Shown in pieces: positions 7,257 to 63,942 of a stretch of DNA of 64,000 bases (its first letter is position 1; each line of letters opens with the position of its first letter). The position numbers were made by a program, and so were the translations under genes. The notes beneath the pieces are model-generated. The model searched no databases. It had not been told where the DNA came from and saw only the letters and a list, made by a program, of their open reading frames with translations. The stretch spans positions 4,013 to 68,012 of the forward strand of contig JBCLGS010000001.1 in the NCBI GenBank assembly GCA_039740895.1, written 5' to 3'. Source of the DNA: Parcubacteria group bacterium. Its GTDB lineage: Bacteria > Patescibacteriota > Minisyncoccia > Phycocordibacterales > DATDWN01.

Positions 7257-7286
7257 AAAGTGTATATTACCATATCTTTCGTTTTC

Positions 7287-7564
7287 TCAAAACATGTCTT
7301 TTTTGAGACATTGCACAGGATATTAGAAAACAACGACGAAATTAAAGAAAGACCGAAGCACTGTTTGACGAAGTCGTAATCGACGAGGTGAGAAGCGAAG
7401 CTTCGCAAGACCTTGAGTATTTTGTAATCAAAATGCAAAAGGTGTACTGCTCCTGTAAGGAGTTTGCGAGAGGTCTTCGTAATGAGGAAGATTGTTTTCT
7501 TGATATCCGAGCATAGCAAAAGCCCACCAGGGCTTTCCGTGTCTCAAAAAAGACATGTTTTGAG
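7287..7564 (+). repeat. Structured palindromic element C1 carrying the conserved core (7389-7460)
   Basis: 25-bp perfect terminal inverted repeats (ctcaaaacatgtcttttttgagaca / tgtctcaaaaaagacatgttttgag). A 72-nt core is shared with 25727-25802 and 63641-63717. Confidence 0.8.
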
Positions 7565-7568
7565 ATTT

Positions 7569-8371: not shown

Positions 8372-8497
8372 AAACTTTCAAATTTGACCAAGGTCGCGTA
8401 TAAAATTTGAAAAAAAATTGGAGCCTACCTGAGTGCGTAGGCGACGATTCTTTTTCAGATTTTAGACGATGAAATTGGGCATAATTTGGAAGTTTTA
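8372..8497. repeat. Structured intergenic element A1
   Basis: ~125-nt imperfect palindrome with central hairpin gcctac-CTGAGTGC-gtaggc (8423-8442). Its end runs into the rplQ stop codon. Confidence 0.8.
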
Positions 8498-8845
8498 TTA
8501 TACGAATTCTATTATGGCCATAAGGCTTCCGTCACTCTTTCGCGCTGGTAATTTGGTGATGCGTGTATAACCACCTTTTCTGTCTAGATATTTTGGAGAA
8601 ATATCATTGATAATTTTTTCTGCACCAAGAGCACCAATTTTTGATATAAGAAGTCTTTTTGATATAACTGTGTTTGTTCTTCCAGAAGTAATCATTTTCT
8701 CAGCGTATGGTCGAAGCTCTCGCGCCTTTGCATCTGTAGTCTTGATTTTACCTTCTAGAACTAATGCTAAAGCAAGCGACTTCATAAGTGCGTTTCGTAC
8801 TTTCTGTTCTCTTCCAAATTTTCTTTTTGTATTATGATGTCTCAT
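8498..8845 (-). CDS. rplQ: 50S ribosomal protein L17
   Basis: MRHHNTKRKFGREQKVRNALMKSLA is an L17 N-terminus. Confidence 0.95.
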   Translation of the reverse strand: MRHHNTKRKFGREQKVRNALMKSLALALVLEGKIKTTDAKARELRPYAEKMITSGRTNTVISKRLLISKIGALGAEKIINDISPKYLDRKGGYTRITKLPARKSDGSLMAIIEFV

Positions 8846-9941: not shown

Positions 9942-10067
9942 AAAACTTCCAAATTTAGCCAAGATCAAGTATAAAATTTGAAAAAGAATTGGAGCCTACC
10001 TGAGTGCGTAGGTGACGATTCTTTTTCAAATTTTAGACGATGAGATTGGTTATAATTTGGGAGTTTT
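9942..10067. repeat. Structured intergenic element A2
   Basis: 17-bp perfect arm aaaatttgaaaaagaat / attctttttcaaatttt and hairpin gcctac-CTGAGTGC-gtaggt. Its end overlaps the rpsD stop. Confidence 0.8.
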
Positions 10068-10674
10068 ATCTACTATAGAACTCAATTACGGTATTAAGAT
10101 CAAACATATTATCGGACTGAACATACACTGGTGCACCCGTAATCTCGGCAACCTTCTTGATTATGTCAAACTTGATCCATGAAGGTGTTGTTACACTTTT
10201 CAATCTCTCATCAACATTTGCAAATAATGGTTTTGTCTTTGAACTCTCACGGATTTCAATCTTATCACCTATTTTCACTCGAATTGAAGGTATATCTACT
10301 CGCTTTCCGTTTACAAGAATGTGGCCGTGAGAAACAATCTGTCGACTACCAAGTCTTGTATTTGAAAGACCTATTCTACATATAACATTGTCCAGTCGTG
10401 TCTCTAGAAATTCAAAAATAGTTTGTGATTTGTTTGATGATTTCTTTGAAAGAGCCTCTTTAACATAATTTGAAAATGTTTTTTCTGTAAGACCATAAAT
10501 AAATCTAGCTTTTTGCTTTTCTGTTTGCTGTAGAGAATATTCAGATTTTGGTTTAGAAAATCCTTTCTTCCTGCCTTTTCTTTCCATTCTAAGTGCGTAT
10601 TTTTGAGTTTGAGTTTTCTCAAAAATTGGTGCTCCTAGGCGTCGTGCTATTTTGTATTTTGGTCCGATTATCAT
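10066..10674 (-). CDS. rpsD: 30S ribosomal protein S4
   Basis: MIIGPKYKIARRLG N-terminus and an S4 RNA-binding domain (RLDNVICRIGL...SRQIVSHGHILVNG). Confidence 0.95.
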   Translation of the reverse strand: MIIGPKYKIARRLGAPIFEKTQTQKYALRMERKGRKKGFSKPKSEYSLQQTEKQKARFIYGLTEKTFSNYVKEALSKKSSNKSQTIFEFLETRLDNVICRIGLSNTRLGSRQIVSHGHILVNGKRVDIPSIRVKIGDKIEIRESSKTKPLFANVDERLKSVTTPSWIKFDIIKKVAEITGAPVYVQSDNMFDLNTVIEFYSR

Positions 10675-10696: not shown

Positions 10697-10822
10697 AAAA
10701 CTTTCAAATTTGTTCAAGATCGCGTATAAAATCTGGAATTGAATTGAAGACGTACTGAGTGCTACGTCGCCAATTCAATTCTGGATTTTAGACGATGAGA
10801 TTGGACATAATTTGAATGTTTT
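10697..10822. repeat. Structured intergenic element A3
   Basis: Same architecture with different arms (ctggaattgaattg / caattcaattctgg) and hairpin gacgta-CTGAGTGC-tacgtc (10749-10768). Its end overlaps the rpsK stop. Confidence 0.8.
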
Positions 10823-11252
10823 ATACTCTTCGTGACTTCTTAGGTTTGGGTCCATTATGTGGAACTGGAGTAACATCCTTGATTCCTGTTATGCTGATTC
10901 CTTTTGAAATAAATCCTCTGATTCCTGACTCTCGTCCTGAACCTACACCTTTTACAATAACTGCAACTTCTCGCATACCCATTGTTGCTGCCTTGCCTCC
11001 GAGGATTTCACCAACCTTTGCTGCTGCAAATGGAGTACCTTTCTTGGCACCCTTGAAGCCGATTGATCCACTTGAAGATGAACCTAGGACATTACCTTTG
11101 GTGTCTGTAAGGACGATTTTGGTGTTGTTGTATGTAGACTGGATGTATAGTCGGCCAACTTCAACTTTCTTTTTTGAGACAGCTAAAACCGGAGTAGCTT
11201 TTACTTCTCCTTCAGTATCACTTCCAGTTTTTACGATTCGTTTTTTTCCCAT
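10821..11252 (-). CDS. rpsK: 30S ribosomal protein S11
   Basis: GRLYIQSTYNNTKIVLTDTKGNVL...GFKGAKKGTPFAA. Confidence 0.95.
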   Translation of the reverse strand: MGKKRIVKTGSDTEGEVKATPVLAVSKKKVEVGRLYIQSTYNNTKIVLTDTKGNVLGSSSSGSIGFKGAKKGTPFAAAKVGEILGGKAATMGMREVAVIVKGVGSGRESGIRGFISKGISITGIKDVTPVPHNGPKPKKSRRV

Positions 11253-11267
11253 TTTATTAATTTATTT

Positions 11268-11451
11268 AAAAACTTTCAAATTTGTTCAAGATCGCGTATA
11301 AAATCTGGAATTGAATTGAAGACGTACTGAGTGCTACGTCGCCAATTCAATTCTGGATTTTAGACGATGCTCCATTGTTTTCTTATGAGCAAAGCGAGTT
11401 AGAAAACAAGCAGTACCCTTGTGGCAAGATTGGACATAATTTGGAACTTTT
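11268..11451. repeat. Structured intergenic element A4 with nested 57-nt insertion (11370-11426)
   Basis: Near-identical to A3 over the first ~100 nt, then a 57-nt insert between gacgatg and agattgg. Its end overlaps the rpsM stop. Confidence 0.8.
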
Positions 11452-11830
11452 ACTTCTTATCGGCAGCTTTCTTGCCAGACGCCATCGTCTTTCTGACATT
11501 TCCTCGTCTTGTTCTGGAATTTGTTTTTGTTCTTTGTCCTCGTGATGGAAGACCTTTTGCATGTCTGGTTCCTCGGTAAGTTTTGATATCCTTTAGTTGC
11601 TTTATGTTTCTAGCAACTTCACGTTTCAAATCTCCTTCTATTTTATACTCTTCTATAATCTTTCGAATTGTATTTTCTTGGTCAACCGTTATCTCTTTTG
11701 GCTTTAAACCGTGAGGAACCTTTGCCTTATCTAATATAGTATGTGCAAGAGGTCGTCCAATACCATAGAGGACTGTTAATCCAATTTCAATTCTTTTTTC
11801 TTCCGGTAATGTGATTCCAAGTATTCTCAT
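11450..11830 (-). CDS. rpsM: 30S ribosomal protein S13
   Basis: MRILGITLPEEKRIEIGLTVLYGIG N-terminus and a basic C-terminus. Confidence 0.95.
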   Translation of the reverse strand: MRILGITLPEEKRIEIGLTVLYGIGRPLAHTILDKAKVPHGLKPKEITVDQENTIRKIIEEYKIEGDLKREVARNIKQLKDIKTYRGTRHAKGLPSRGQRTKTNSRTRRGNVRKTMASGKKAADKK

Positions 11831-11870
11831 TTTATATTTTTATATTTTTTACTTTATTTTAAATCCTGTG

Positions 11871-11988
11871 AAATTTCAAATATGGATGAAATCCGAGGCG
11901 GACGAGAATTTTGTTTGGAGCCGTACTTATCGTACGGTGACAAACAAAATTTGAAGTCCAACGATGGAGTTCGCCATATTTGAAATTT
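11871..11988. repeat. Structured intergenic element B1
   Basis: 15-bp perfect terminal inverted repeat aaatttcaaatatgg / ccatatttgaaattt and central hairpin ccgtac-ttatc-gtacgg. Related copy at 59182-59305. Confidence 0.75.
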
Positions 11989-12104
11989 TACCCTTGGCGC
12001 TGTTTGTGTCGGGCGTTGGATTTGCATGTAATATAAACATAGCCCTTTCTTCGGACTACTTGGCATTGCGCACATATTTTTTTAACTGATGATTTTACTT
12101 TCAT
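11988..12104 (-). CDS. rpmJ: 50S ribosomal protein L36 (not in ORF track)
   Basis: Hand translation: [38 protein letters not shown]. Sits between infA and rpsM as expected. Confidence 0.9.
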
Positions 12105-12106
12105 AT

Positions 12107-12140
12107 TACGAATTATCACGAATTTATCGAATATACGAAT
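12107..12140. repeat. ACGAAT-repeat element, copy D4 (diverged)
   Basis: tacgaattatcacgaatttatcgaatatacgaat has four CGAAT units at 8-10 nt spacing and fills the infA-rpmJ gap. Confidence 0.5.
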
Positions 12141-12481: not shown

Positions 12482-13060
12482 TTACAGCAAAACATTATTG
12501 ATGCATGATTTTTGTTGTGCAAAAATCAAAAACTCCCTATTTTTGCCCTTCTCGCCGAGGATTGGTGATTCTGTTTCAGAAAGGATTTCGAGACCGAGGG
12601 ATTTTAATTTTTCTCTAACTTTTTCCAAAACTTCCGGAATAAACTCCTCCTCTAGCTTCCCTTTACGAATCATTCTTTGCTCCGCCTCATAGTGTGGCTT
12701 TAGCAATACTATAATATGCCCACCTTCTTTCAAATTTAGCAGAACATTTGGAATGACTTTTTCTAATTTGGTCCAGCTGGTGTCCACAGATATTAAGTCT
12801 GGCTTTTCTGGTAGCAAAACATGCATGGCATTGTTTCTCTCTAGCACTACCACTCTTTTGTCCTTTCGAAGCTTCCAGTCCAAAACGCCATAGCCAGTCT
12901 CTACTGCATAAACCTTTAGAGCACCGTTCTGAAGTAGACAATCAACGAAACCGCCCGTACTGGAGCCAAAATCAGCACAAATAAGACCCTTGGGGCTAAA
13001 TCCAAAGGTTTTTAAGGCATGTTCCATCTTCTCCCCGGCACGAGATACATATATAGTCAT
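12482..13060 (-). CDS. tlyA: TlyA/FtsJ-like rRNA methyltransferase
   Basis: SAM-binding DFGSSTGGFVDCLLQNGA. The start is taken at Met44 (13060) because upstream codons are encoded by palindromic element C4. The last codons and stop lie in a 30-nt palindrome shared with mnmA. Confidence 0.75.
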   Translation of the reverse strand: MTIYVSRAGEKMEHALKTFGFSPKGLICADFGSSTGGFVDCLLQNGALKVYAVETGYGVLDWKLRKDKRVVVLERNNAMHVLLPEKPDLISVDTSWTKLEKVIPNVLLNLKEGGHIIVLLKPHYEAEQRMIRKGKLEEEFIPEVLEKVREKLKSLGLEILSETESPILGEKGKNREFLIFAQQKSCINNVLL

Positions 13061-13260
13061 TTGAATATATTTTTTAAGACACGCATAAAGCCTTGGTTGG
13101 CTTTTGCTATGCTCGGATATCAAGAAAACAATATACTCGATACATAGCCCTTTCGCAAACTCCTCGTCGAGTACGACTTCGTCAAACAATGCTTCGGGCT
13201 TATTTCATCTTCGTATTTGTTTTCTAATATCCTGTGCAATGTCTTAAAAAATATATTCAA
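13061..13260 (-). repeat. Structured palindromic element C4 (homolog of C1, inverted, core absent)
   Basis: 21-bp perfect terminal inverted repeat ttgaatatattttttaagaca / tgtcttaaaaaatatattcaa. The reverse complement aligns with both C1 arms but joins cgacgagg directly to agtttgcga. Confidence 0.8.
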
Positions 13261-13265
13261 ATGTC

Positions 13266-15964: not shown

Positions 15965-16600
15965 TTACTTAAGCATTTTTAAAAGTATAGGGTAGATTCT
16001 ATCAGCAATTTTTTGGTTTCCGATATCGTTTGGATGAATAGAATCCGCCATATATCTATCATCTGCTATTAAACCATCTAAAACATTTGAAACAAAAGCT
16101 GTATGATATTTATCTCTCAATTTTTCGAATTCGGTATCAAATTTATCACTCAGTATTCCACCTCTAATTCCAAGGAGTACCACAATAGTGCCTCTTCTTT
16201 GGAGGTCGGCGATTATTTTCTCCAAATCAATAAATGTTTCTTCTTTGGGAATTTTTTTTAAATAATCATTTCCACCAAAAAGAAGTAGGACAATTTTTGG
16301 ATGATATTTATCAAATTGGTTTAATCGAGCTATCCCGTCTGCTGTAGTATTTCCAGAAATTCCTAAGTTGATTATAGGGATACCTATTTTTTTTGAAAGA
16401 AGCGACACAAAATTTTTACTTTCGCTCGACGCTCCTGTTCCTACAATTAAACTATCTCCGAAAGCAATGATATCTGTTCCACTGGAAGGATAATTGACTA
16501 TTTTATCTTCTCGAATAAATTTGAAATAAAAAATAGCAAACAAAATAAATACGATTGAAACACATATAGCGTAAATGACTTTTTTGTTTATGGAATACAT
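15965..16600 (-). CDS. SGNH/GDSL hydrolase
   Basis: Block I FGDSL, block III GGNDY, block V DSIHPN, with an N-terminal TM anchor. Confidence 0.85.
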   Translation of the reverse strand: MYSINKKVIYAICVSIVFILFAIFYFKFIREDKIVNYPSSGTDIIAFGDSLIVGTGASSESKNFVSLLSKKIGIPIINLGISGNTTADGIARLNQFDKYHPKIVLLLFGGNDYLKKIPKEETFIDLEKIIADLQRRGTIVVLLGIRGGILSDKFDTEFEKLRDKYHTAFVSNVLDGLIADDRYMADSIHPNDIGNQKIADRIYPILLKMLK

Positions 16601-16966
16601 ATGATTATGGCTGTATCAAAGAAATTAGCTCTTTTTCTGACAAAACAGGAACTCCTTCTTTTAATGCTTTTTGGTACTTACTTCCAGGCTCATTTCCTAC
16701 TACTACGAATGAAGTCTGTTTTGAAACACTTTCTGTAATTTTCCCACCAAGTTCTTTAATTTTTTTCTTGGCATCATCACGACTCATTGTTTCAAGTGTA
16801 CCAGTAATGACAAAAGTTTTGCCAGCTAATTTCTGACTTATAGTCTGAGATTTATACGGTAATATAGAGACTCCATTTTTGAAAAGTTTTTCTATAAATT
16901 TCAAATTATCTTTATTTCGGAAATATTCAAAGACACTTTTAGAAACCACTGGTCCTATATTTTCAA
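16599..16966. repeat. 368-bp direct repeat, left copy (duplicate of ligA 3' end)
   Basis: Matches 18445-18812 at an offset of 1846. Both boundaries were mapped by eye and the encoded residues are identical. Confidence 0.85.
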
Positions 16967-17012: not shown

Positions 17013-18200
17013 TTAAACATCTTGCTGGGTATTTTGAGGAGCAGGCTCTCTTTTTCCAGCTATTGTGTTCATAATCTCAGGAAGTTTTTCAAGTTTTATA
17101 CGCTTAAGAAAATCAGTTGTTCCTTCACTTAATTTGTCTTGATTCATTAATTCTATTGCTTTTTTTAAATGTTTTTTAGTAAACTTCTCTTCGTACTTCC
17201 AGATACCTTTTTGTTCCAATTCATATTCAAGTACACGCTTACGAGCATCCATTTCCGTAGGATTAGAAAAATATTCATTATCCTCTTTTGCATCCGAGGA
17301 TAATGAACGATATGCTTTTTTGTACAATTTTTTAGCATACCTTGACATATATTTGTTATCATCTGTAATTGCATGCTGTCCTTCATGAAGAGCCACGGGT
17401 TCATTCATTAAATGAGCATCAGAGCTGATAATGTATTTACCTTCTAATTCAGGTCTTCCAGTTCCAGAATTATAAGAAATATACTCCCCAGCAACTCCTT
17501 TATCCAGAGGGTGATGTTGATCCTGAATTCTTAGATTGTCAGATACTGCAATACCTTTTCTACGTTCTATTTCCTCATCAGATAGACCCTCAAATTTCTT
17601 AGCTTTTAAAGCATATTCCGGAGAATGTACTACTCCTGCCAACCACCTTCTTTGGTCATCAGCATCTTTATAATTAAGTTCAGCTTCCATCTTAAGTTTA
17701 TTAAATTCAGATTCCCCTACTAAATTATATTCCCGATGAGTTTTTACATATTTTTTATACTTATCATAACTTTCAAATGCTATTCGTTGAGGATTATTTT
17801 TTTCAATTTCCACATGTGCTCTTTCACCATTCGTTGTTTGTGCTTCTATACCACCTGCCATAGAAGCTAGTACTCCTATAGCCATAATTTTTTTAAAACT
17901 TTTATATAATCCACTAGCTGAATCTTTGATGCCACTTAGTGCAGAATTTGTGCCACTTGATTCCATGCGTGATGTAACCTCATCAGAAGTAAATCCTAAT
18001 CTTTCACCAAAACCAATCACATTTGGAGTTACAGTGTCTGCTTTTTCGTCAAATGAAGCTATTTCCGCATCAGATTTTAGATCTAATTCTTTTATTTCTT
18101 CTGTTTCTGTTAAGGGTAATGCTTCGGGTGATACTTCGGGCAGTACGGTACCCTCTTTTAAAGACAAGTCATCTTCTTTTTGTTTTTGTTCAAAATTCAT
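17013..18200 (-). CDS. Hypothetical HExxH protein (putative Zn metallopeptidase-like), membrane-associated
   Basis: ALHEGQHAITD contains HExxH. One hydrophobic segment (IMAIGVLASMAGGI) and an acidic N-terminus. Confidence 0.6.
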   Translation of the reverse strand: MNFEQKQKEDDLSLKEGTVLPEVSPEALPLTETEEIKELDLKSDAEIASFDEKADTVTPNVIGFGERLGFTSDEVTSRMESSGTNSALSGIKDSASGLYKSFKKIMAIGVLASMAGGIEAQTTNGERAHVEIEKNNPQRIAFESYDKYKKYVKTHREYNLVGESEFNKLKMEAELNYKDADDQRRWLAGVVHSPEYALKAKKFEGLSDEEIERRKGIAVSDNLRIQDQHHPLDKGVAGEYISYNSGTGRPELEGKYIISSDAHLMNEPVALHEGQHAITDDNKYMSRYAKKLYKKAYRSLSSDAKEDNEYFSNPTEMDARKRVLEYELEQKGIWKYEEKFTKKHLKKAIELMNQDKLSEGTTDFLKRIKLEKLPEIMNTIAGKREPAPQNTQQDV

Positions 18201-18361: not shown

Positions 18362-18444
18362 TTGAGTTAGTTGGATTCAAGTTTCTAATACAAATAGTAT
18401 AACCTAATTGCACATGAACAACAAATCATATTCATTTTAAATGA

Positions 18445-22282
<3,838 letters not shown>

Positions 22283-25586: not shown

Positions 25587-25623
25587 TCACAAGTTATAAC
25601 ATAAAATTAGAAGATGGTAAAAT

Positions 25624-25865
25624 AAAACAAACTAAATAATACCTTTTCTGAGACCCCGCAGACCTGAAGCAGGTTTTGTCAACGACCCGACTGAAAGGAG
25701 GGCTCATTGACAAATTCAGGTCGAGGTGAGAAGTGATAGTATCACTTCGCAAGACCTTGAGCGTCTGTAGTCAGATGCGAAAGGTGTACTGCTCCTGTAA
25801 GGAGAGAATTCAAAACCCGCTGGGGTTTTGAATGTTCTCAGAAAAGGTATTATTTAGTTTGTTTT
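25624..25865 (+). repeat. Structured palindromic element C2 carrying the conserved core (25727-25802)
   Basis: ~30-bp terminal inverted repeats (aaaacaaactaaataataccttttctgaga / tctcagaaaaggtattatttagtttgtttt). Its end overlaps the mltG stop. Confidence 0.8.
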
Positions 25866-26883
25866 ATTTGAGATATTTTTGCTTGTTAATAATATGCTCA
25901 GCAAAAGTTTTTGCGTAGTGAATTGTGCCATCTTTTTCTGTGAGAAAATAAAGATAATTTGTTTTTATAGGTGTATATGCGGCAATGATAGCATCGATAC
26001 CGGGGTTTGATATTGGTCCTATAGGAAGACCTTTATTTGTGTAAGTATTGTAAGGAGAATCTATTTTCAAATCATCCAAAGTTAATTCGTATGTATTTTT
26101 TCCATTTATATATTTAAAAGTCGCATCAACTTGTAGTGGCATACCGATAGCAATTCTTTTCCATAAAATACCTGCCACTATTTGTTTGTCTTTAGGAAGT
26201 GCCTCACCTTCAAGGATTGAAGCCATAATGATGATATCACTAATTGATTTTTTCGTCGTTTGAAGATTTGCAACTTGGAGAATTTTCTTATTGAAATTAT
26301 TCTTCATCAATTCTATAATGTCTGCAGGTTTCGCACTCATCGATACAAAATATGTATCAGGAAATAAATAGCCTTCATATTTTTTGGCTGAATCAACGAA
26401 TTCTTTTTTATTAAATTTCAATAAATTTTTCTCAAGATAATCCCCTATCTGAAATACATTCCAACCTTCTGGTATTGTAATTTTAATTGTATTGATTTGA
26501 AATACTCCATTAACCAGTCTGCGTGCCAACATGAACGAACTTTCTTTCTTGGACAACAAATAATCACCAGCGATAACCTTTTTTTCACCACCAAAAAGAA
26601 TAACCAGCGAACGGAAAACTAATTCCGAACCAATAATATTCTTATTCTTCAAATCAACTGTAATGGACTGGAGAGATTCTCCAAAGCGTATTGTCAAAAC
26701 ATCTCCAACAGGAAAATTTGTTGGTGTAGTGAACAAAAGAACAGAAATAAATGCAAAAATAAAAGCTGTAATAAAAGCTAAAATTGCTTTTGGTCTGGTA
26801 ACTTTCTGATATTCCACATACACCTTAACCTTTTCAGACCAAGATTTCAAAAAAATAATATATTTTGGGTCTTCCATAGGCAA
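25864..26883 (-). CDS. mltG: Endolytic transglycosylase MltG (YceG-like)
   Basis: N-terminal TM and a YceG domain (LEGYLFPDTY, ASILEGEA, SPYNTYTNKGLPIGPISNPG). Confidence 0.88.
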   Translation of the reverse strand: MPMEDPKYIIFLKSWSEKVKVYVEYQKVTRPKAILAFITAFIFAFISVLLFTTPTNFPVGDVLTIRFGESLQSITVDLKNKNIIGSELVFRSLVILFGGEKKVIAGDYLLSKKESSFMLARRLVNGVFQINTIKITIPEGWNVFQIGDYLEKNLLKFNKKEFVDSAKKYEGYLFPDTYFVSMSAKPADIIELMKNNFNKKILQVANLQTTKKSISDIIIMASILEGEALPKDKQIVAGILWKRIAIGMPLQVDATFKYINGKNTYELTLDDLKIDSPYNTYTNKGLPIGPISNPGIDAIIAAYTPIKTNYLYFLTEKDGTIHYAKTFAEHIINKQKYLK

Positions 26884-45375: not shown

Positions 45376-45457
45376 ATGGCTGACCCTATTTCCCATGAAT
45401 CAAAGGTATCTGACCTCTTTATCTCTTTAATTAAAGGTGACTGACCCCTTTTCCTCC
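45376..45457. repeat. Three tandem motif-E copies (45376-45394, 45403-45425, 45433-45457)
   Basis: atggctgaccctatttccc, aaaggtatctgacctctttatct and aaaggtgactgaccccttttcctcc. The third supplies the last 9 codons and stop of the DUF262 fragment. Confidence 0.7.
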
Positions 45458-45658
45458 TGCAGTATGCGATTCTGTTAAAAATATTATTGTTCCCAATAAA
45501 TGGAATTCATTCTCTCTTAAATAATTGATATCATTAAATAGCGCGTCAAGTTGTTTAACACCCCATGCATATCTTCTTTGATAAGGAGGTATAAAAAATT
45601 GTTCATTTGTGCTAATAAACAACTGTATTATTGATTGTGTGTTGGGTGTGATTTTCAT
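45431..45658 (-). pseudogene. N-terminal fragment of a DUF262 (GmrSD/ParB-like nuclease) gene
   Basis: FFIPPYQRRYAWGVKQLDALFNDI is the DUF262 signature. The ORF ends after 75 aa, before the expected DGQQR, inside motif E. A strong SD is retained. Confidence 0.7.
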
Positions 45659-45805
45659 ATTTTTAAATGTTCCTCCTAGTGTAGCATATTAACGCTAATC
45701 TGAACCGCTCCAACATACAACAACCCAGCGGTCAGCCAATTCATCGCTTTCCCATACTTCTCCTTAGTTTTTGGATCTAGAGTAGTCAGATACATTTGAT
45801 TTACC

Positions 45806-45907
45806 TCTCCCTTTCTTCCTCATTGTGGTTTCAAGACCAAACTTTTTTATTACCTTATCAAATTTCCTTCGGTTTTAAGAATAAAGGTTCCTGACACCCT
45901 TATTCCC
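45806..45907. repeat. ~100-bp direct repeat R1 (34-nt perfect core 45835-45868)
   Basis: gaccaaacttttttattaccttatcaaatttcct is identical at 48636-48669, and flanks are similar. Ends with motif E (45883-45907). Confidence 0.75.
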
Positions 45908-45925
45908 TAATAATATAACTTGCTT

Positions 45926-48088
45926 TTACTCATTGATTGTCTTTTCTGCAAAAATCACAGCTTCGGTATTTTCTGGGTTCATAAGAACTGGCCACCAAAA
46001 TGGTGTATCGCGCCAGCCACTATCTTTGTCACCATTTTGACGTATCAGCATTAAAGCAGGAATATCTTGTGCAATATCTCGTGCGACAGAACGTACTGAT
46101 TTTCCACTTCCTCCGTCTGGGTCGTCTGAGATACGACCATCATTCTTATGTCTACTCAGATTCATGTTCTTTCGTATAACAATCCACACCTTTCCGCGCT
46201 GTTCGATATTTTTACTATTCACAGACAGGTACTCCATGCTCGACCTAAAAGTACTCCAACTCCATGCATACAAAGGATCCAGTTCTAGCGTCTTTTCAAT
46301 CAGGCTTACAACATGAAGTGCTTCCTTCAAATCAACGCTAACTGAGCCATTTTCATCAATAGTCGCAAACCATTCACTTACTATTCCGTCTACTTCAGCA
46401 ATTACAGATTCAATATGTGTTTTATATCCAGACTGAAAACCAACTGGTAACATTCTTTTGTGCGGCTGTAGTGTAGCAAGAGAAGATAGCAGTAATTTAT
46501 TTGGGGAACACGGCACCAACTTACCTGTTACATCCTTCCTAATAAAATATACTCCTTGCTCATGGCTTCCCCTCTCAAATGCCTCTCTTAGCGCTGAATC
46601 AAATTGGTGTATTCGTCTCATCACTTCGTAAATATCACGTGTTGTATAAAATCTTGTAACAGCCAGGTCCTCTCTTGATCTTGCCCCATACATACGTGAA
46701 TGTTGCAGGACGGTATCTTGCTGAAACTTCTTAGGGCTTCTTCCATAATAAAAACCTATGAGATTATTTATGGTCACCCCACGGTCAAGAATCTGACCGC
46801 CAACAAAAATATTCATTGGGTTACGTAGTTTAAGTTGGCCCTCATTATCGAGCAATTCTTCAACATCTTTATCAGAGTTTACAACAATGGTAACAATATA
46901 TTCCTTTATAAGCGCCTCTAAAGAGTTTTCTAGTACAACATCTATAGAAGGAATCACCATCCCGTCAACTTTCTGCAATGATTTTATGATATCATCATAA
47001 GCTTCTCGCAGGAGTTGACGAACAACTGGCTTGTCACTTTTTGCAGCAATGGCAAGCTGAGACACAATCGCTTTAATCACTTCAGCTTGCCAATGATGCG
47101 AAGCTCTACTTATTTCACTATGTGCTATAAGTGCATACTTCTGCACTTTTTCATTAGTAGATTCTTGTTGAAATCTTCTTATAACACTACCTACTATAAA
47201 ATTTATAACAGCAGAACGAAGTGACTTAATTTTTTCAGAAAATAACACATCGTCCAGTTTTAATCGACGAGAGTCTGATTTTTTTAATACATCACGTTCA
47301 TCCGTAGAAACCTCTTCATACACGTTATACGCTATTGAATCCTCGTCGTCACTTTCTTCAAAATAAAACTGACCTCCAACATAATTATCATGAATTGGTA
47401 CTAATGTAGTAAAAATGGGTCTCCTTGGAAGGAATTTCATGTTTGCTGTCTCTTCTGTGGTGGGCTGAAGGTATAAAGAATATGGAGTAGCGGTAACCTG
47501 CAGATAATCTACCTCTTTAACAATATTCCAGAGCTCGTCAATTTGTGACGATATTCTACCAACCTCTATCGCTTCCTCATGTTTTCTAAAACTAATGCTG
47601 GCAAAGTCAGCTTCATCGTCAATGATAAGAATCTTCTTTTCGCGGAGATCCGGATAAACACTAGCAAGCGTTTTAAGAATCCGTCTCATGTTATTGACTT
47701 CCTTCTTAACAATAATGATTAGTTTTTTATTACGCTCATACCCGGTTAGATTGTCTGGCATATGCATAATATCAAACACATCCACAAGGTCCTCTTCGAT
47801 AAATTCCTTAAAGTCTTTTCCCATTCTATGCACAGTCTGCGTCAAGAGGGCTTTCGTGCCTTTAGTAAGAATGATCGAAACATCGTACCCCTTATCAAAA
47901 GCAAGGGCCATGATTCCAATAAAGGCTCGCGTCTTCCCACTCTGAATTTTCCCGAGGAGTATTCCAGGCTTCTTTGAAGAGGTATCATTCTCGAGTAATT
48001 TTGTGACTGTTTCTTTCATGCACTCCACAAGATCTGGCGCATCTTCACGCATGCTTACAAGTCTGTTGAACATCGTTTCTTTTTCCAT
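45926..48088 (-). CDS. Z1-domain P-loop NTPase (restriction-system-associated family)
   Basis: Walker A GKIQSGKTRAF, Walker B IIDDEADFASI and a large C-terminal domain. Assignment to Z1 is from recalled family features. Confidence 0.6.
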   Translation of the reverse strand: MEKETMFNRLVSMREDAPDLVECMKETVTKLLENDTSSKKPGILLGKIQSGKTRAFIGIMALAFDKGYDVSIILTKGTKALLTQTVHRMGKDFKEFIEEDLVDVFDIMHMPDNLTGYERNKKLIIIVKKEVNNMRRILKTLASVYPDLREKKILIIDDEADFASISFRKHEEAIEVGRISSQIDELWNIVKEVDYLQVTATPYSLYLQPTTEETANMKFLPRRPIFTTLVPIHDNYVGGQFYFEESDDEDSIAYNVYEEVSTDERDVLKKSDSRRLKLDDVLFSEKIKSLRSAVINFIVGSVIRRFQQESTNEKVQKYALIAHSEISRASHHWQAEVIKAIVSQLAIAAKSDKPVVRQLLREAYDDIIKSLQKVDGMVIPSIDVVLENSLEALIKEYIVTIVVNSDKDVEELLDNEGQLKLRNPMNIFVGGQILDRGVTINNLIGFYYGRSPKKFQQDTVLQHSRMYGARSREDLAVTRFYTTRDIYEVMRRIHQFDSALREAFERGSHEQGVYFIRKDVTGKLVPCSPNKLLLSSLATLQPHKRMLPVGFQSGYKTHIESVIAEVDGIVSEWFATIDENGSVSVDLKEALHVVSLIEKTLELDPLYAWSWSTFRSSMEYLSVNSKNIEQRGKVWIVIRKNMNLSRHKNDGRISDDPDGGSGKSVRSVARDIAQDIPALMLIRQNGDKDSGWRDTPFWWPVLMNPENTEAVIFAEKTINE

Positions 48089-48091
48089 AAT

Positions 48092-48412
48092 TTATTTTAT
48101 TTGAATTATCTTCATCACTTCGTCGCCATAGCGATTGATGACCTTATATGGGAATCTTGCCTGTTACCGGCTTGGCAAATGGTCTTGAGATGGTGGAAAC
48201 GAGTGAATCAAAAATGTCAGGGTTTATATCTACCTTGGGGGCCTTCTTGAGTTTCTCGTAGGGGTTCTCAAATGACTGGGAATATGCGATTGCGGACGCT
48301 TCAATTTCTTTGCTACCTCAGTTTGAGTCAACTCTGCTTCTTCCAGGGCTTTCCGCAATCGCTCGACAAAATGGGCGTATTCCTTTGTTTGTCTTGACTT
48401 AGTCGTATACTA
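48092..48412 (-). pseudogene. Decayed XRE-family HTH gene (no start codon, at least two frame changes)
   Basis: Frame 1 reads FVERLRKALEEAELTQTEVAKKLKRPQSHI, then shifts. The final frame ends ...VINRYGDEVMKIIQIK with its stop 3 nt before the Z1 ATG. No ORF of 60 aa or more on either strand in 48089-48712. Confidence 0.45.
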
Positions 48413-48580
48413 CTATGTTCTATCTAAATTGTCAATAGCCCACTCCAGCTCATTAAAACTGTTAGCTAGCCAAGAATGAATATCTCGCAAATAGGTTACA
48501 GTATTTCCATATAAAAATGGAAATAAAGTACGAGATATCCAAACAAGTACCACAGCACAGCATCTATTCCCCCACAAAGA

Positions 48581-48602
48581 GAAAAGGTGTCAGGAACTTT
48601 TC
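48581..48602. repeat. Motif E, inverted orientation
   Basis: gaaaaggtgtcaggaacttttc; its reverse complement resembles aaaggttcctgacaccctt at 45883. Confidence 0.45.
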
Positions 48603-48605
48603 TTT

Positions 48606-48707
48606 GCCTCCCCATCTTCCCCGTTGTGTTTTCAGGACCAAACTTTTTTATTACCTTATCAAATTTCCTCTCGATTTAACAAACAATGGTGCCTGACCCA
48701 TTTTCCC
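48606..48707. repeat. ~100-bp direct repeat R2 (34-nt perfect core 48636-48669)
   Basis: See R1. Ends with motif E (aatggtgcctgacccattttccc, 48685-48707), whose stem is AATGG/CCATT versus AAAGG/CCTTT elsewhere. Confidence 0.75.
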
Positions 48708-48712
48708 ACCTT

Positions 48713-49813
48713 TTAAGTTTTTTTATTCTTTTCCCTCAATTTTATTTTTCGTTTTTCGACAAATTGTTCTTGGTGTTTGAAATATTCGCTTAAGTAAAAG
48801 TTTTGCTGCATCATATTTGATAAGTGTTTAGACCAAAAAATGTTGTCTGGTCTTGCTGGGGTTAAGATACATTTTTTATTTGTGTCAAAATAAAACTTAT
48901 CCTTATTAACCGCCTCATCGTGTGTAAAATCTAAATTACGGTTATCCTCTTTGTTGTCTATTGAAAAATCAATGATGTTGATTTGTTCAACCTGAATTGG
49001 ATCAAACAATTTACCATTTTCCAAAATTAAACAAGGGTGATTTTGACAATAATCCAGCAAATTTCCTGTATCATATTTACTATTTTTTAACTCATAATAA
49101 ATGTCCTTCAATAACTGTTTTAATTCAGTCTGTCGTTCTATGCCTATTATTTTCATATTGATACTATATAAGGCAAAAAATAACATAACTAAATCAATAT
49201 CTAAACATATTTCTTCATTAGCAAATTCACAGGCTGGATTAAATAATAATTCGTTAGTCGTATGTGATTTGATAACGTCTTGCTGACCGCCAGCAATATA
49301 AACATAAATATAACCCTCCAATTTTTCATTTCCTATATTCACAGGATTGGAAATATTATTTTTTCTTTTTATCACAGAGTTTTTCCAACTTGGAAACCTC
49401 TCATTTAATTTTTTAAAAGCACTTCTCGCTGTTTGCGAGGAAGAAACACCATCCTCATTTCTTATTGAAATCATTGAAGAAACAACCTCATCAGAACCTA
49501 ATCGACTTTTTATAACATTAAATAATGAATTCTTATCTTCATCTACGTTAAAATAATCTTCATTGATAAATTCCACAACAACACCACCAGAGAAGGTCTC
49601 TAGTTGCTCAAGTGTGAGTTTGTTTTTATTTACGGTTTTCCAAGAAATTAGAACACGATTCTTACGAGATGTTCGTTTTTGAAATAACTCATCAGGAACA
49701 TTACCTTGTGCAGTTTTCCCGCATAGATTTGTTAATTTTGTCCTAATTTTATCACCTTTATCAAAACTATTTAAAAAATTAATTGTTTTATTTCGTAATT
49801 GATTTTTTTTCAT
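48713..49813 (-). CDS. Putative type II restriction endonuclease (by position only)
   Basis: Start MKKNQLRNK lies 4 nt after the C-protein stop, and the gene is divergent from the methyltransferase. No recognised catalytic motif. Confidence 0.45.
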   Translation of the reverse strand: MKKNQLRNKTINFLNSFDKGDKIRTKLTNLCGKTAQGNVPDELFQKRTSRKNRVLISWKTVNKNKLTLEQLETFSGGVVVEFINEDYFNVDEDKNSLFNVIKSRLGSDEVVSSMISIRNEDGVSSSQTARSAFKKLNERFPSWKNSVIKRKNNISNPVNIGNEKLEGYIYVYIAGGQQDVIKSHTTNELLFNPACEFANEEICLDIDLVMLFFALYSINMKIIGIERQTELKQLLKDIYYELKNSKYDTGNLLDYCQNHPCLILENGKLFDPIQVEQINIIDFSIDNKEDNRNLDFTHDEAVNKDKFYFDTNKKCILTPARPDNIFWSKHLSNMMQQNFYLSEYFKHQEQFVEKRKIKLREKNKKT

Positions 49814-49817
49814 ATTA

Positions 49818-50048
49818 CTACTTTTGATTAAAAATTTTTCTGATATCAATATCAAGCGCATGAAAAATTTTTATGAGCGTATGGACAGATGCTTTGCGTC
49901 TATTTGTTTCAATATCACTTATAGATTTTGCCGCTAGGTTGACGGTGCGCGCGAGTTGCTCTTGTGTTATTTTTTTTGCTCGACGAAAATCGCCAATTTT
50001 TGATTGGATTTCATTCTGCACCTTCAAAAAGTCTATATTGGGGAGCAT
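49818..50048 (-). CDS. XRE-family HTH controller (C) protein
   Basis: ITQEQLARTVNLAAKSISDIETNRRKASVHTLIKI is a typical HTH_3, and the gene sits immediately upstream of the putative REase. Confidence 0.75.
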   Translation of the reverse strand: MLPNIDFLKVQNEIQSKIGDFRRAKKITQEQLARTVNLAAKSISDIETNRRKASVHTLIKIFHALDIDIRKIFNQK

Positions 50049-50125
50049 GTTTAAATTTTAACTTATATTATGATACAATATAACCGGCTAACTGCCGTAG
50101 TAAAAAATGATTATTAAGTAAAAAT

Positions 50126-52198: not shown

Positions 52199-52364
52199 AA
52201 TATTCGTTTACATCCATACCCCACGGCACACGCTCATAATCTTTGAGCTCATTATCGGCTTCCTGTTTCCCGTCATCATCTAAACAAATTTCCGCCTCTT
52301 CATCACGCTCGCCAATCTGTTGCCAAATAATTTTAATGGTTCTTTTGGTAATTTTAAGGTCTAC
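52158..52364 (-). pseudogene. Remnant of a type I R-M HsdM-like C-terminus
   Basis: Hand translation: ...IKIIWQQIGERDEEAEICLDDDGKQEADNELKDYERVPWGMDVNEYFKKDL. It resembles the conserved HsdM tail (..LRD.ENVPL..I.EYF..EV). No start codon, and it overlaps the MTase 3' end. Confidence 0.45.
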
Positions 52365-58776: not shown

Positions 58777-59166
58777 TTATTGGAAATCAATTTCAAAAGG
58801 ATACATTCCCATACCACAAGTTCCATTGAGTAACCCTGCTTTTGGATTGCCTAAGTCTATATCTGTTACCCCTGACTGCGATAAGTTTTGAGCAATGTCC
58901 ATACTTGGAATACGGACTGTTGAAGAACAATCAAAGGTGCCGTTTGTATTGACTCGAAGAATTGTTGGGATACCAGCTTTTGCAGTACTTTTTCTCGGTA
59001 GATATCCTCCTTTTGCTGTTAAATCTATAATTTGTTTTCCATCTACAATAGCCACATTATTTACCGAAACAGTCTGATCACCCGAAGAAGTTCTTAATCC
59101 CGAAGAGAGCATCACTCCGACGATGATTAAAATTCCAAAGATAATTGAAAAGAATATATATTTCAT
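58777..59166 (-). CDS. Cupredoxin-like secreted protein
   Basis: Start taken at MKYIFFSIIFG. Has FDCSS and a C-terminal GTCGMGMY Cys/Met cluster. Last gene of the copper operon. Confidence 0.6.
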   Translation of the reverse strand: MKYIFFSIIFGILIIVGVMLSSGLRTSSGDQTVSVNNVAIVDGKQIIDLTAKGGYLPRKSTAKAGIPTILRVNTNGTFDCSSTVRIPSMDIAQNLSQSGVTDIDLGNPKAGLLNGTCGMGMYPFEIDFQ

Positions 59167-59181
59167 CTTATTTTGTTTTTT

Positions 59182-59305
59182 AAAAACTTTTATAATTTGA
59201 ATGAAATCCGAGACGGACAAAAAATTTGTGCGAAACCGTACTCCTGTACGGTGACAAACAAATTTTGAAGTCCAACGATGGAGTTCGTCAAATTTGAAAG
59301 TTTTT
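59182..59305. repeat. Structured intergenic element B2
   Basis: Shares atgaaatccgag, hairpin ccgtac-tcct-gtacgg, gtgacaaacaaa and gaagtccaacgatggagttcg with B1. Confidence 0.75.
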
Positions 59306-59306
59306 A

Positions 59307-60395
59307 TTAGAAATTAAATATAGGGGGTATTACATTTATTACCACCAAACTGTTTATTATATTAAACAGAGCAAACATTATAACAATAAGTCCGGCAGAT
59401 TTAAAGAAGATTCCCCGGGAAAAATAACTGCTTGAATTATTTTGGAAACTTAGCGAACTAAAACTGACAAGGGCTAGTGCTGGAAGTGTACCCAAGGCAA
59501 AAACAAACATTGTCATTGCTCCAGTCCAAAAAGTCCCAGTTGATAGAGCATAAATCTGCATTGATTGGGTAAATCCGCATGGTAGAAAAAAAGTAACAAT
59601 ACCAACCAAAAGTGGTGTCAGCGTGTGATTCAGTTTTGAAATTTTCATAGCATTCTTTGAAAGGAACTTTGGCATACTAGGTTGAAGTTTTTTTGAAAAA
59701 TGAAAAACATCAAGCAAATTTAATCCCATAATAAGCATGACCAGTCCAATTATAAAACCGAGGATAAATGTTGCCGAAGTGTTTAATTGAAATACGGCAC
59801 CGAGTGCCCCAATTATTCCACCGAGGATAAAAAAGGAAACCAGTCTTCCTCCATGGAACATAAGCTGAGGTTCAAATTTCTTGACCCGACGGGTCAATGA
59901 CACATGTTTATTATCTTGTAAAGATGTGTCTTCTTTTGCAAAAGTGGCTGACATAGAAAGTAATAGTCCGCCTACAATTGCCAAACATGAAGACAGAGAT
60001 GCAATAGCACCAATAATAAATACCGTGCCGTAATTCATTTTGGATGCATCAACTAAATTAACAAGTCCCATTTTTTGAAGCAAAACAAAAAGAACTGCAA
60101 AGCCGATGGCAATAGGTATCGCCACTTTAAAATCCTTCCAATTTTTATCTGCCTTTTTTTTATCAATTGACACTACATATTTATATTTCGCAAGTAATGT
60201 GGAAAAATCTTCCGCAATAGATTCTGGTGGCACACCTTCAAAGTCCCCTGTCACTCTCAAAGTTTCGTGCTTCAAGTCTACCTTCACATTTTCAACATAA
60301 GAAAGATCTTTTATTTCCTCTTCAATGATAAGTCCGCATGATTTGCAGTGCATTCCACTGACATGAAATGTATATGTTTTTGATTCTCTTTCCAC
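59307..60395 (-). CDS. HMA-domain membrane protein (DsbD_2/UreH-like permease family, tentative)
   Basis: N-terminal GMHCKSC heavy-metal-binding domain, then about six TM segments with FFLPCGFTQ. Confidence 0.65.
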   Translation of the reverse strand: MERESKTYTFHVSGMHCKSCGLIIEEEIKDLSYVENVKVDLKHETLRVTGDFEGVPPESIAEDFSTLLAKYKYVVSIDKKKADKNWKDFKVAIPIAIGFAVLFVLLQKMGLVNLVDASKMNYGTVFIIGAIASLSSCLAIVGGLLLSMSATFAKEDTSLQDNKHVSLTRRVKKFEPQLMFHGGRLVSFFILGGIIGALGAVFQLNTSATFILGFIIGLVMLIMGLNLLDVFHFSKKLQPSMPKFLSKNAMKISKLNHTLTPLLVGIVTFFLPCGFTQSMQIYALSTGTFWTGAMTMFVFALGTLPALALVSFSSLSFQNNSSSYFSRGIFFKSAGLIVIMFALFNIINSLVVINVIPPIFNF

Positions 60396-63391: not shown

Positions 63392-63583
63392 CAGAAAAAT
63401 CCGCATTACAGCGGATATTTTTGGTGGTGTTTGTTTGAAAAAGTCAGAACCCATTTCGAGCAGAACCCCTAGCTTCGCACGCTCCGCGTGCGTGGTGGCT
63501 TGAAACTCAATCGTACGCTCCGATTGCGCCTCGGGCGCGCTCGCGGACTCGCGCGGGCAAGGGAACACTTGTGCAGAGCCAAA

Positions 63584-63746
63584 ACCCAAAAATTTTCCTT
63601 CCTTTCTGATTTAATTCGGCGGGGGGTGTGGGGGGTGAGGTGCGACAACTGGAAGCACCGCAAGATCTTGAGCATTTTGTAATCAAAATGTGAAAGGTGT
63701 ACAGTTTCTGTAAGAAAACGACAAAAAATGGAAAGGAAATTTTTGG
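63584..63746 (+). repeat. Structured element C3 carrying the conserved core (63641-63717)
   Basis: Outer stem ccaaaaattttccttcc / ggaaaggaaatttttgg. The core shares GCAAGAYCUUGAG, the attttgtaatcaaaat hairpin and AAAGGUGUAC with C1 and C2. Confidence 0.7.
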
Positions 63747-63942
63747 TTTTGCTTCGTCGCTTCAGTCTCCGAAAAGAGCAATCTAATTATGACATTTTTG
63801 TTTGCTCTTTTCTACATCTTCGCGGCGACCCGAGGCGCATACAATTCGGTTTGCGTTGTTGTTTGTAGCTACTTGGCGAAAATCGTGAATTTGATTTCGC
63901 AATTTTCTTTTTTCAATCCTCCAAATTTTTCTTTAGTGGCTT

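Follow-up and report, generated by a model that had tools for sequence, protein, structure and literature searches.

A ~125-base hairpin repeat in the ribosomal-protein and copper operons of a Paceibacteria-type bacterium, a candidate non-autonomous mobile or duplicative element

The 64-kb stretch of DNA analysed here (the window) has a GC content of 35% and carries nearly all of its genes on the minus strand. Two copies of an imperfect hairpin, element B, were found in two functionally unrelated operons. B1 takes up most of the spacer between rpmJ and rpsM, and B2 lies in a copper operon whose order according to Pfam is CsoR, P-type ATPase, HMA+DsbD_2 permease, B2 and cupredoxin, and this gene context, proposed in the initial annotation, was borne out. 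The coordinates are collected in Table 1, where the plus label of B1 denotes the better-folding strand, which is antisense to the genes. In sense orientation, the first three bases of B1 are the TAA stop codon of rpmJ, and the earlier claim that the terminus of B1 forms this stop codon proved correct, with the TAA (11988-11990, minus strand) lying inside the outer stem. In the copper operon, the stop codon of the permease gene (TAA, 59307-59309) has another in-frame TAA (59304-59306) immediately behind it, and it is this second TAA which makes up the first three bases of B2 in sense orientation, position 59306 being the end of the element on the plus strand.

Table 1. Genes, hairpin elements and parts of elements discussed in the text, with their positions in the window
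Feature	Positions	Strand	Remarks
Family A copy, rplQ-rplM spacer	8372..8500	+	orthologous copy in L026, 85.7% identical
Family A copy, rpsD-rpoA spacer	9943..10068	+	matched full-length by the B model
Family A copy, rpsK-rpsD spacer	10698..10823	+	orthologous copy in L035, 92.9% identical
Family A copy, rpsM-rpsK spacer	11270..11452	+	carries the unique 57-nt insertion
rpsM (S13)	11450..11830	-	downstream of B1; start codon 37 nt past the hairpin
Element B1	11868..11991	+	124-nt imperfect hairpin; 145 bits with model R1
B1 outer-stem 5' arm	11868..11885	+	GTGAAATTTCAAATATGG; I15: 18 nt, 94% complementary
B1 apical GC hairpin	11921..11937	+	CCGTAC-TTATC-GTACGG; flanked by GA/GA internal loop
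B1 ACGATG	11961..11966	+	invariant in all seven A/B copies aligned
B1 outer-stem 3' arm	11974..11991	+	CCATATTTGAAATTTTAC; holds the complement of the rpmJ stop codon
rpmJ (L36)	11988..12119	-	L36 homologs in relatives; upstream of B1
Cupredoxin gene	58777..59166	-	downstream of B2; start codon 14 nt past the hairpin
Element B2	59181..59306 (best limits)	+	126-nt hairpin; 150 bits by covariance model
B2 ACGATG invariant motif	59275..59280	+	from the A/B alignment
HMA + DsbD_2 permease gene	59307..60395	-	Pfam; upstream gene of B2

Element B was confirmed to be a real hairpin repeat of about 125 bases. The perfect 15-nt terminal inverted repeats previously described for B1, aaatttcaaatatgg (11871-11885) and ccatatttgaaattt (11974-11988), checked out in both coordinates and sequence, and G-U pairs lengthen this outer stem to 18 bp (11868-11885 / 11974-11991). 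The inner stem (11907-11917 / 11942-11952) and the apical hairpin that it encloses were also found as described, within 11907-11952. B1 and B2 have atgaaatccgag, gtgacaaacaaa and the 21-mer gaagtccaacgatggagttcg in common, and the apical stem of B2 is that of B1 with the loop tcct, in agreement with the motifs listed before for this copy. The cores of the two copies are 85% identical, and the outer arms of B2 look like those of family A, which is described below. In comparison to dinucleotide shuffles, the folding energies were -64.3 kcal/mol (z -10.7) for the plus strand and -47.9 kcal/mol (z -8.8) for the minus strand of B1, and -48.5 kcal/mol (z -7.2) and -40.7 kcal/mol (z -6.9), respectively, for B2. 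The view of B as a genuine second family was upheld. That such hairpins arose by chance, as palindromes in AT-rich DNA of low complexity, or through faulty assembly might be suggested by their AT-rich outer arms and by the single contig from which B comes, but this explanation is already refuted by z-scores of -7 to -11, by the 21-mer GAAGTCCAACGATGGAGTTCG, which occurs exactly twice in the window in comparison to 0.00 expected occurrences, by the GC-rich apical stem and the 85%-identical core at two unrelated loci, and by the presence of A/B-family relatives in independent assemblies from NCBI, JGI and ENA.

No coding signal was found in the elements, which show no stop-codon avoidance and no conserved ORF, and coding or in-frame read-through of B was rejected since stop codons are not avoided and the frames of B1 and B2 differ. 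A K-turn or C/D-box reading of ACGATGGAG...CCGAG was rejected as well, because the register that it needs would sacrifice the UCCG/UGGA helix and the C stem is predicted to stay unformed.

Family A comprises four copies in the window together with one copy each in the relatives L026 (rplQ-rplM spacer) and L035 (rpsK-rpsD spacer), at the same sites as window copies. The covariance model of B matched every A copy over its full length and in the same orientation only, with 38-53 bits (E 1e-10 to 1e-6), and the covariance model of A matched B1 with 51 bits and B2 with 37 bits, while in 155 kb searched with both models no other hairpin was matched, family C included. The initial annotation had suggested one superfamily of families A, B and C. 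The kinship of A and B is supported by these reciprocal matches, but family C, which neither model matches, does not belong to the A/B superfamily. Covariance models and alignment also addressed the concern that nothing might be shared beyond AT-rich arms, which did not hold. The joint A/B structure has 51 pairs, in which 90.1% of cells are paired in comparison to 78.5% in shuffles, and 21 pairs are changed on both sides in comparison to 11.3 +/- 2.1 in shuffles (0 of 500 shuffles reach 21) and 4 to 9 in slid controls, all of this for seven usable sequences, two of them B, which are not independent copies. Within this modelled structure, the A/B hairpin is shown to be maintained by compensatory changes. 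By sequence and model comparison, A and B form one superfamily, with B a diverged subfamily. We define the superfamily by a hairpin of ~125-130 nt, read as TAAAA(A)C... in sense orientation, with an AT-rich outer stem, a GC-rich apical hairpin, a fixed orientation and, within the 3' arm of the antisense strand, an ACGATG that does not vary, features which A and B possess and which family C does not show together.

The cores of A and B are only ~50% identical, and ACGATG is invariant in 7 of 7 A/B copies. In the predicted folds, most of the stretch ACGATGA of family A would be in a helix, with TCGCGT as its pairing partner and one A bulged out, and in the best fold of B, AACGA would form a loop and TGGA a stem. 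Since the stretch is mostly helical in A and partly loop in B, the common internal-loop motif proposed earlier was not established, and what A and B share in ACGATG is a sequence motif in corresponding positions. Family C itself consists of large structured elements (7285-7565, 25620-25869 and 63582-63750) which share the 30-mer ATGCAAAAGGTGTACTGCTCCTGTAAGGAG and whose outer parts are long inverted repeats, perfect over 26 nt at 7285/7540. The first of them has a 291-nt multi-branched fold of -115.7 kcal/mol (z -10), with ACGAGGTGAG in its 5' half near a multiloop, and no Rfam match.

The placement of the A/B elements follows strict rules. All eight copies lie between co-directional genes in one orientation, and all eight, read in sense orientation, start with the stop codon of the upstream gene. 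Most copies have TAAAA(A)C as their sense-strand start, replaced by TAAAAT in B1 and by TAAAAG in A_11253, a second TAA comes right after the true stop at two sites, and the copies stop 14-84 nt short of the next start codon. Five of the six window copies lie within one ribosomal-protein operon, where A/B elements fill five consecutive spacers of the essential rpmJ-rplM cluster and are flanked by rpmJ, rpsM, rpsK, rpsD, rpoA, rplQ and rplM in their universal order. No conserved promoter-like or terminator-like site was found at A/B elements; an outward or antisense promoter and an intrinsic terminator were rejected as candidates, with consensus matches only at chance level and none of them position-conserved, and neither B1 nor B2, whose hairpin base is AT-rich, has the form of an intrinsic (Rho-independent) terminator. 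A ribosomal-protein autoregulatory leader was rejected because B2 lies in the copper operon and relatives lack the element.

The two strands of the elements are not equivalent. In 7 of 7 A/B copies, the strand antisense to the genes (plus in the window) folds better than the sense strand by 8-19 kcal/mol, or 16-33% of dG, and it contains 3-7 G-U pairs in comparison to 0-2 on the sense strand; with DNA parameters the advantage persists in the three copies tested (B1, B2 and A_10681). A fold-independent comparison, in which each arm was set against the reverse complement of the other, gave 26 G·T in comparison to 6 A·C on the antisense strand, with a p value of 5e-4 that, like the other pooled polarity statistics, overstates the significance owing to the non-independence of the copies. 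When B was taken alone, the asymmetry was 6 in comparison to 3, which is not significant. The internal-loop residues of the antisense strand comprise 100 purines and 21 pyrimidines (18 of 19 are purines in B1), arranged in loops such as GA/GA, GA/GAA and A/G; the extra-helical bases are also carried by the antisense strand, and on the sense strand the wobbles turn into C·A mismatches and the loops become pyrimidine-pyrimidine. Third-position and GC3 skews weakly indicate that the minus strand is the leading strand, which would make the better-folding strand the leading-strand template. A mutational bias behind the G·T asymmetry was rejected by reasoning, since the deamination that usually gives the non-transcribed or leading strand its surplus of C-to-T changes would place the additional wobbles on the sense strand, opposite to the strand on which they are found.

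This polarity bears directly on two explanations in which the element acts as RNA. In the first, the hairpin in the operon mRNA is the functional form, as a cis-acting intercistronic RNA which could be a site of processing by RNase III or another enzyme, a barrier that protects the upstream cistron from 3'-exonucleases, or a means of tuning or uncoupling translation at the stop codon. Each copy lies between co-transcribed genes, from the stop codon to 14-84 nt before the start codon, the sense strand of B still folds strongly (z -6.9 to -8.8), the A/B structure covaries, and family A is more conserved than its flanking genes. REP elements near stop codons are also reported to lower the translation of the upstream gene. 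In Neisseria, transcripts of neighbouring genes include the Correia elements, which RNase III cleaves (PMC10969869, PMC2649163). We nevertheless regard this explanation as unlikely, given a sense strand that folds systematically worse, with its C·A mismatches and pyrimidine-pyrimidine loops, the occurrence of B in two functionally unrelated operons, and an element that is dispensable, close relatives having the same operons with spacers of 4-30 nt. A structured RNA of the operon transcript, the reading implicit in the initial annotation, thus became doubtful because the antisense strand folds better. In the second explanation, the elements would be multi-copy small RNA genes whose plus-strand transcripts run antisense to the operons, with the purine-rich loops as binding sites for protein or RNA. 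The strand polarity of G-U pairs and purine-rich loops would be accounted for, as would the invariant ACGATG, the apical loop CTGAGTG, which is invariant in family A, and the U-run in which the plus-strand hairpin ends, but no promoter-like box keeps a constant distance to the elements, the gap to the start codon of the neighbouring gene is just 14-40 nt, close relatives do not have the element, and Rfam has no match, which makes small RNA genes quite improbable.

Comparison with relatives showed that the sites of B are empty elsewhere. The rpmJ-rpsM spacer measures 24-50 nt and contains no element in eight relatives (L026, L030, L032-L035, L039 and L040) whose S13 is 86-93% identical to that of the window, the S13 relatives being named Patescibacteria, Parcubacteria, Paceibacterota or Minisyncoccia, and the permease-cupredoxin spacer is 19 nt long in the two nearest permease relatives (L036 and L037, 70% identity). 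Since the orthologous spacers are only 19-50 nt long, B1 and B2 are insertions specific to this lineage, and the insertions at the stop codons of the two operon genes are recent. The rpmJ-rpsM spacers of L033 and L034 (S13 91% identical) hold only outer-arm-like pieces, TAA-ACTTCAAATTTGAAAG; at ~60-80 in L033 and ~1265-1290 in L034 there is just the short palindrome ACTTCAAATTTGAAAG or what is left of a single arm, similar to the outer stem of A/B. These pieces look like deletion remnants or a footprint, or else like a precursor palindrome or empty target.

Family A occurs at one site each in L026 and L035, is absent from the other spacers of those genomes, and is absent from L030, L039 and L040. 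At the shared sites, the copies are 92.9% identical between the window and L035 and 85.7% identical between the window and L026, in comparison to 71-82% for the ribosomal-protein genes that flank A and 57-61% for their third codon positions. Because A is conserved above its flanking genes, its sequence is either under strong constraint or recently renewed since the genomes split. In addition, rpsK is bracketed by two A copies (10698-10823 and 11270-11452) which are identical over the element and 16 nt of downstream leader, and which differ only in ~9 nt by each stop codon and in a hairpin-forming 57-nt insertion (11370-11426), nested in the second copy, where it splits ACGATG|AG; no second copy of this insertion was found elsewhere in the window or in the loci of the relatives. 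The identity covers the element and the 16-nt leader and is interrupted near the stops, so the duplicated A unit is offset from the base of the hairpin, and the two copies are a recent duplication. ACGATG as the edge of the identity tract was rejected, since identity resumes past the 57-nt insertion. At the scale of closely related genomes, the comparison shows gains, duplications and losses of A/B elements.

Database searches were in line with a narrow distribution of B. The element was not found in related Patescibacteria contigs (nine or more), and in Rfam 15 it was unmatched at gathering and permissive thresholds, with the best permissive scores at B1 and B2 reaching 9-21 bits in comparison to cut-offs of 40-80; only LOOT and a tRNA pass the gathering threshold in the window. 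The exact-core scans, which demand exact matches and which diverged copies would escape, returned four chance matches in GC-rich coding DNA for AATCCGAG-N40-70-GTCCAACGATGGAG in metagenome contigs, a single chance match in a cyanobacterium for an exact 19-mer in genome contigs, and chance matches only in three scans of viral contigs. There was no blastn match of B1 in phage and plasmid collections either, and B was thus not found in any of the public DNA collections searched besides Rfam (metagenome, genome, viral, phage and plasmid). A literature search found no description of interspersed hairpin repeats in CPR/Patescibacteria, and B is so far a genome-specific subfamily.

[quoted passage not shown] The antisense strand of A/B corresponds to the attC bottom strand in stability, G:T pairs, purines and leading-strand template, and both kinds of element are imperfect palindromes directly 3' of ORFs, in a single orientation, with AAC/GTT at the base of most A/B copies. 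As an anatomical and statistical positive control, we gathered six genuine attC sites, mostly near-identical and GC-rich, and an aadA1 attC sequence was checked against plasmids (100% match). With the same pipeline, the bottom strand of the controls was more stable in 5 of 6, with 14 G-U pairs in comparison to 4, so that A/B elements show attC-type polarity more strongly than the genuine attC controls. The anatomy is different. The folds of the controls have 1-8 pairs from the base (5-8 in four of six) followed by 5-6 unpaired nt on each side, in comparison to 12-18 uninterrupted pairs from the base in six of seven A/B copies and a single mismatch after 4 pairs in A_10681. The RYYY/RRRY context of the attC base triplets is absent, though AAC...GTT is present in five of six A copies and B2; the base of B1 reads AAATTTC...GAAATTT, and in the A copy at 11270-11452 GTT is replaced by CTT. 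A/B elements thus show the bottom-strand preference but lack the R/L box layout and the unpaired central spacer, core genes flank them in place of accessory cassettes, and the window has no tyrosine recombinase, and thus no integrase, nearby. By these criteria, A/B elements share the strand logic of attC sites but are not attC sites.

An attC reading was weighed in two forms. If the elements were integron-type attC sites or a CALIN (an integrase-less attC cluster), their folded bottom strand would be the substrate of an IntI-like tyrosine recombinase. The position just past ORFs, the orientation rule, the length range (57-141 bp), the layout of ORF-element-ORF-element, the AAC...GTT base in five of six A copies and B2, and the three strand signatures shared with published attC (PMC5027507) and with the six genuine sites would all fit, as would the extra-helical bases of family A, both of which, like those of attC, fall within the bottom strand's 3' arm; the single-base bulge of B1 is on the 5' arm. 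This possibility is nonetheless very slight, considering that no unpaired central spacer follows a 5-8-bp R box, that B1 and the A copy at 11270-11452 have no AAC/GTT at the base, that the window contains no integrase, that the 'cassettes' would be universal ribosomal-protein genes in universal order, that the identity tract of the A copies runs across the would-be crossover point, and that a literature search found no report of integrons in Patescibacteria. A wider form, in which A/B elements would be attC-like, structure-specific recombination or transposition substrates (antisense ssDNA) that target stop codons or short palindromes in CPR bacteria and have spread into successive spacers of the essential ribosomal-protein operon, is conceivable though doubtful. 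If it were true, a new recombinase or transposase partner would be implied, and core genes such as rpsK would be bracketed by recombinogenic sites.

Among known repeats, REPINs are REP doublets forming a hairpin, mobilised by RAYT, with a putative transposition intermediate that is offset from the hairpin (PMC3116915). Similar to REPINs (~70-120 nt), A/B elements are non-autonomous long hairpins, extragenic, with conserved ends and compensatory changes; REPINs are thought to act as a folded single strand, and the duplicated A unit is likewise offset from its hairpin. They differ from REPINs in that GC-rich palindromes of the REP type are missing from their ends, the window has no RAYT and a handful of copies is seen in comparison to hundreds, and in lying strictly between co-transcribed genes of an AT-rich CPR genome, with a stop-codon start and purine-rich loops. 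In terms of architecture, 21 of 51 pairs are changed on both sides and the outer arms are shared, but no REP unit is recognisable in each arm. MITEs are defined as non-coding, AT-rich elements of less than ~300 bp with terminal inverted repeats and a tightly paired structure (PMC3049150). B agrees with this definition in size and structure (124-126 nt, terminal arms of 15-18 bp, non-coding), and there are two B and four A copies in 64 kb with a patchy distribution among relatives, while no target-site duplication is present at either B site. Correia/CREE, ERIC, RUP and BOX repeats are also ~100-150 nt long, AT-rich, non-coding and patchy, with terminal inverted repeats and a predicted structure that is tightly paired, and Correia-type repeats can act on mRNA when co-transcribed (PMC3049150, PMC10969869, PMC2649163). 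A/B elements differ from these MITE-type repeats in their fixed orientation, strand-polarised structure, lack of target-site duplication and lack of a cognate IS in the window. Another difference is in location, since the spacers of co-transcribed genes are reported to be depleted of pneumococcal repeats (PMC3049150) but are the only places where A/B elements occur. In general, A/B elements depart from the usual bacterial small repeats in being intercistronic only, starting at stop codons, being locked in orientation and carrying attC-like strand signatures, and the conservation of family A above the adjoining ribosomal-protein genes is also unlike such repeats.

The best explanation is that A/B elements are a lineage-specific family of ~125-nt non-autonomous palindromic repeats in a Paceibacteria-type (CPR/Patescibacteria) bacterium. 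We assign a probability of about 0.5 to the reading that they are mobile or duplicative DNA, non-autonomous and dependent on structure, in which selection acts on the folded antisense strand and which is passively co-transcribed. The antisense-to-genes strand would fold alone, most likely as single-stranded DNA, and a structure-specific enzyme whose gene lies elsewhere in the genome would recognise it, for instance a tyrosine recombinase or a RAYT/IS200-like HUH/Y1 transposase. Such an enzyme would copy or insert the element beside a TAA or into a short AAACTTTCAAAT|ATTTGAAAGTTT palindrome. Within operons, the element would be co-transcribed, and the mRNA would bear a weakened hairpin right after the stop codon, which may affect processing, stability or translational coupling. 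Such effects are seen as a by-product because close relatives run the same operons with 4-30-nt spacers.

Compensatory changes occur in mobile REPIN hairpins too (PMC3116915), so the covariation is no argument against mobile DNA. Several observations temper this reading. No transposase, RAYT or integrase was found among the ~60 ORFs of the window that were scanned, and the comparison of filled and empty sites revealed no visible target-site duplication at either B location. Five of six copies in one operon would fit local gene conversion or selection at the RNA level equally well, the conservation above the flanking genes would also fit a functional RNA, and an HUH/Y1 enzyme working on the lagging-strand template would predict an active sense strand, unlike what is seen here, although the skews on which this point rests are weak. 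If the polarity reflects an ssDNA substrate, it would point to a hitherto unknown structure-specific mobilisation system in CPR bacteria, and if it reflects RNA, to a class of multi-copy RNA that is new. The genomes of CPR/Patescibacteria are very small, with little room between genes. B alone amounts to two copies of a diverged subfamily, and it is the entire A/B superfamily that is of interest.

Some other features of the window were observed along the way. The LOOT RNA (RF03000, 36917-37032, plus strand) scores 73.7 bits in comparison to a gathering score of 46.4, lies upstream of the gene for a trypsin-like peptidase, in a gap of 506 nt, and has no similarity to A/B. A 300-nt direct repeat, 99% identical (16594-16893 / 18440-18739), duplicates the 3' end of ligA (BRCT domain) as a 121-aa ORF; a 395-aa ORF (17013-18200) with no Pfam match lies between the two repeats, and the region looks like an insertion into or beside ligA. 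A remnant of an A 3' arm with an rplM-like leader is present at ~17750-17790. Six copies of a AATAAAGGTGCCTGACCGCTTTATCCAC-like 28-nt unit (4238, 41937, 45399, 45430, 45880 and 48682) read on the minus strand as a short GC-containing hairpin followed by a T-run, that is, a repeated terminator-like element. At the 5' end of an FtsJ-like methyltransferase gene, a perfect 24-nt inverted repeat (13058-13081 / 13240-13263, 158 nt apart) may be another hairpin element. A small defence island at ~45400-52200 contains a GmrSD N-terminal fragment, a Z1/ResIII helicase-like protein, an HTH protein and an N6/N4 DNA methylase, with duplicated upstream segments of ~75 nt (45807-45881 / 48608-48682) that are 85% identical. 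In two relatives (L030, 4921-5062, and L032, ~55-180), a different hairpin, AATCCCGTTAGA...TCTAACGGGAT, lies between infA and rpmJ, its 3' end including the rpmJ start codon, so that there are several intercistronic hairpin families in the clade.
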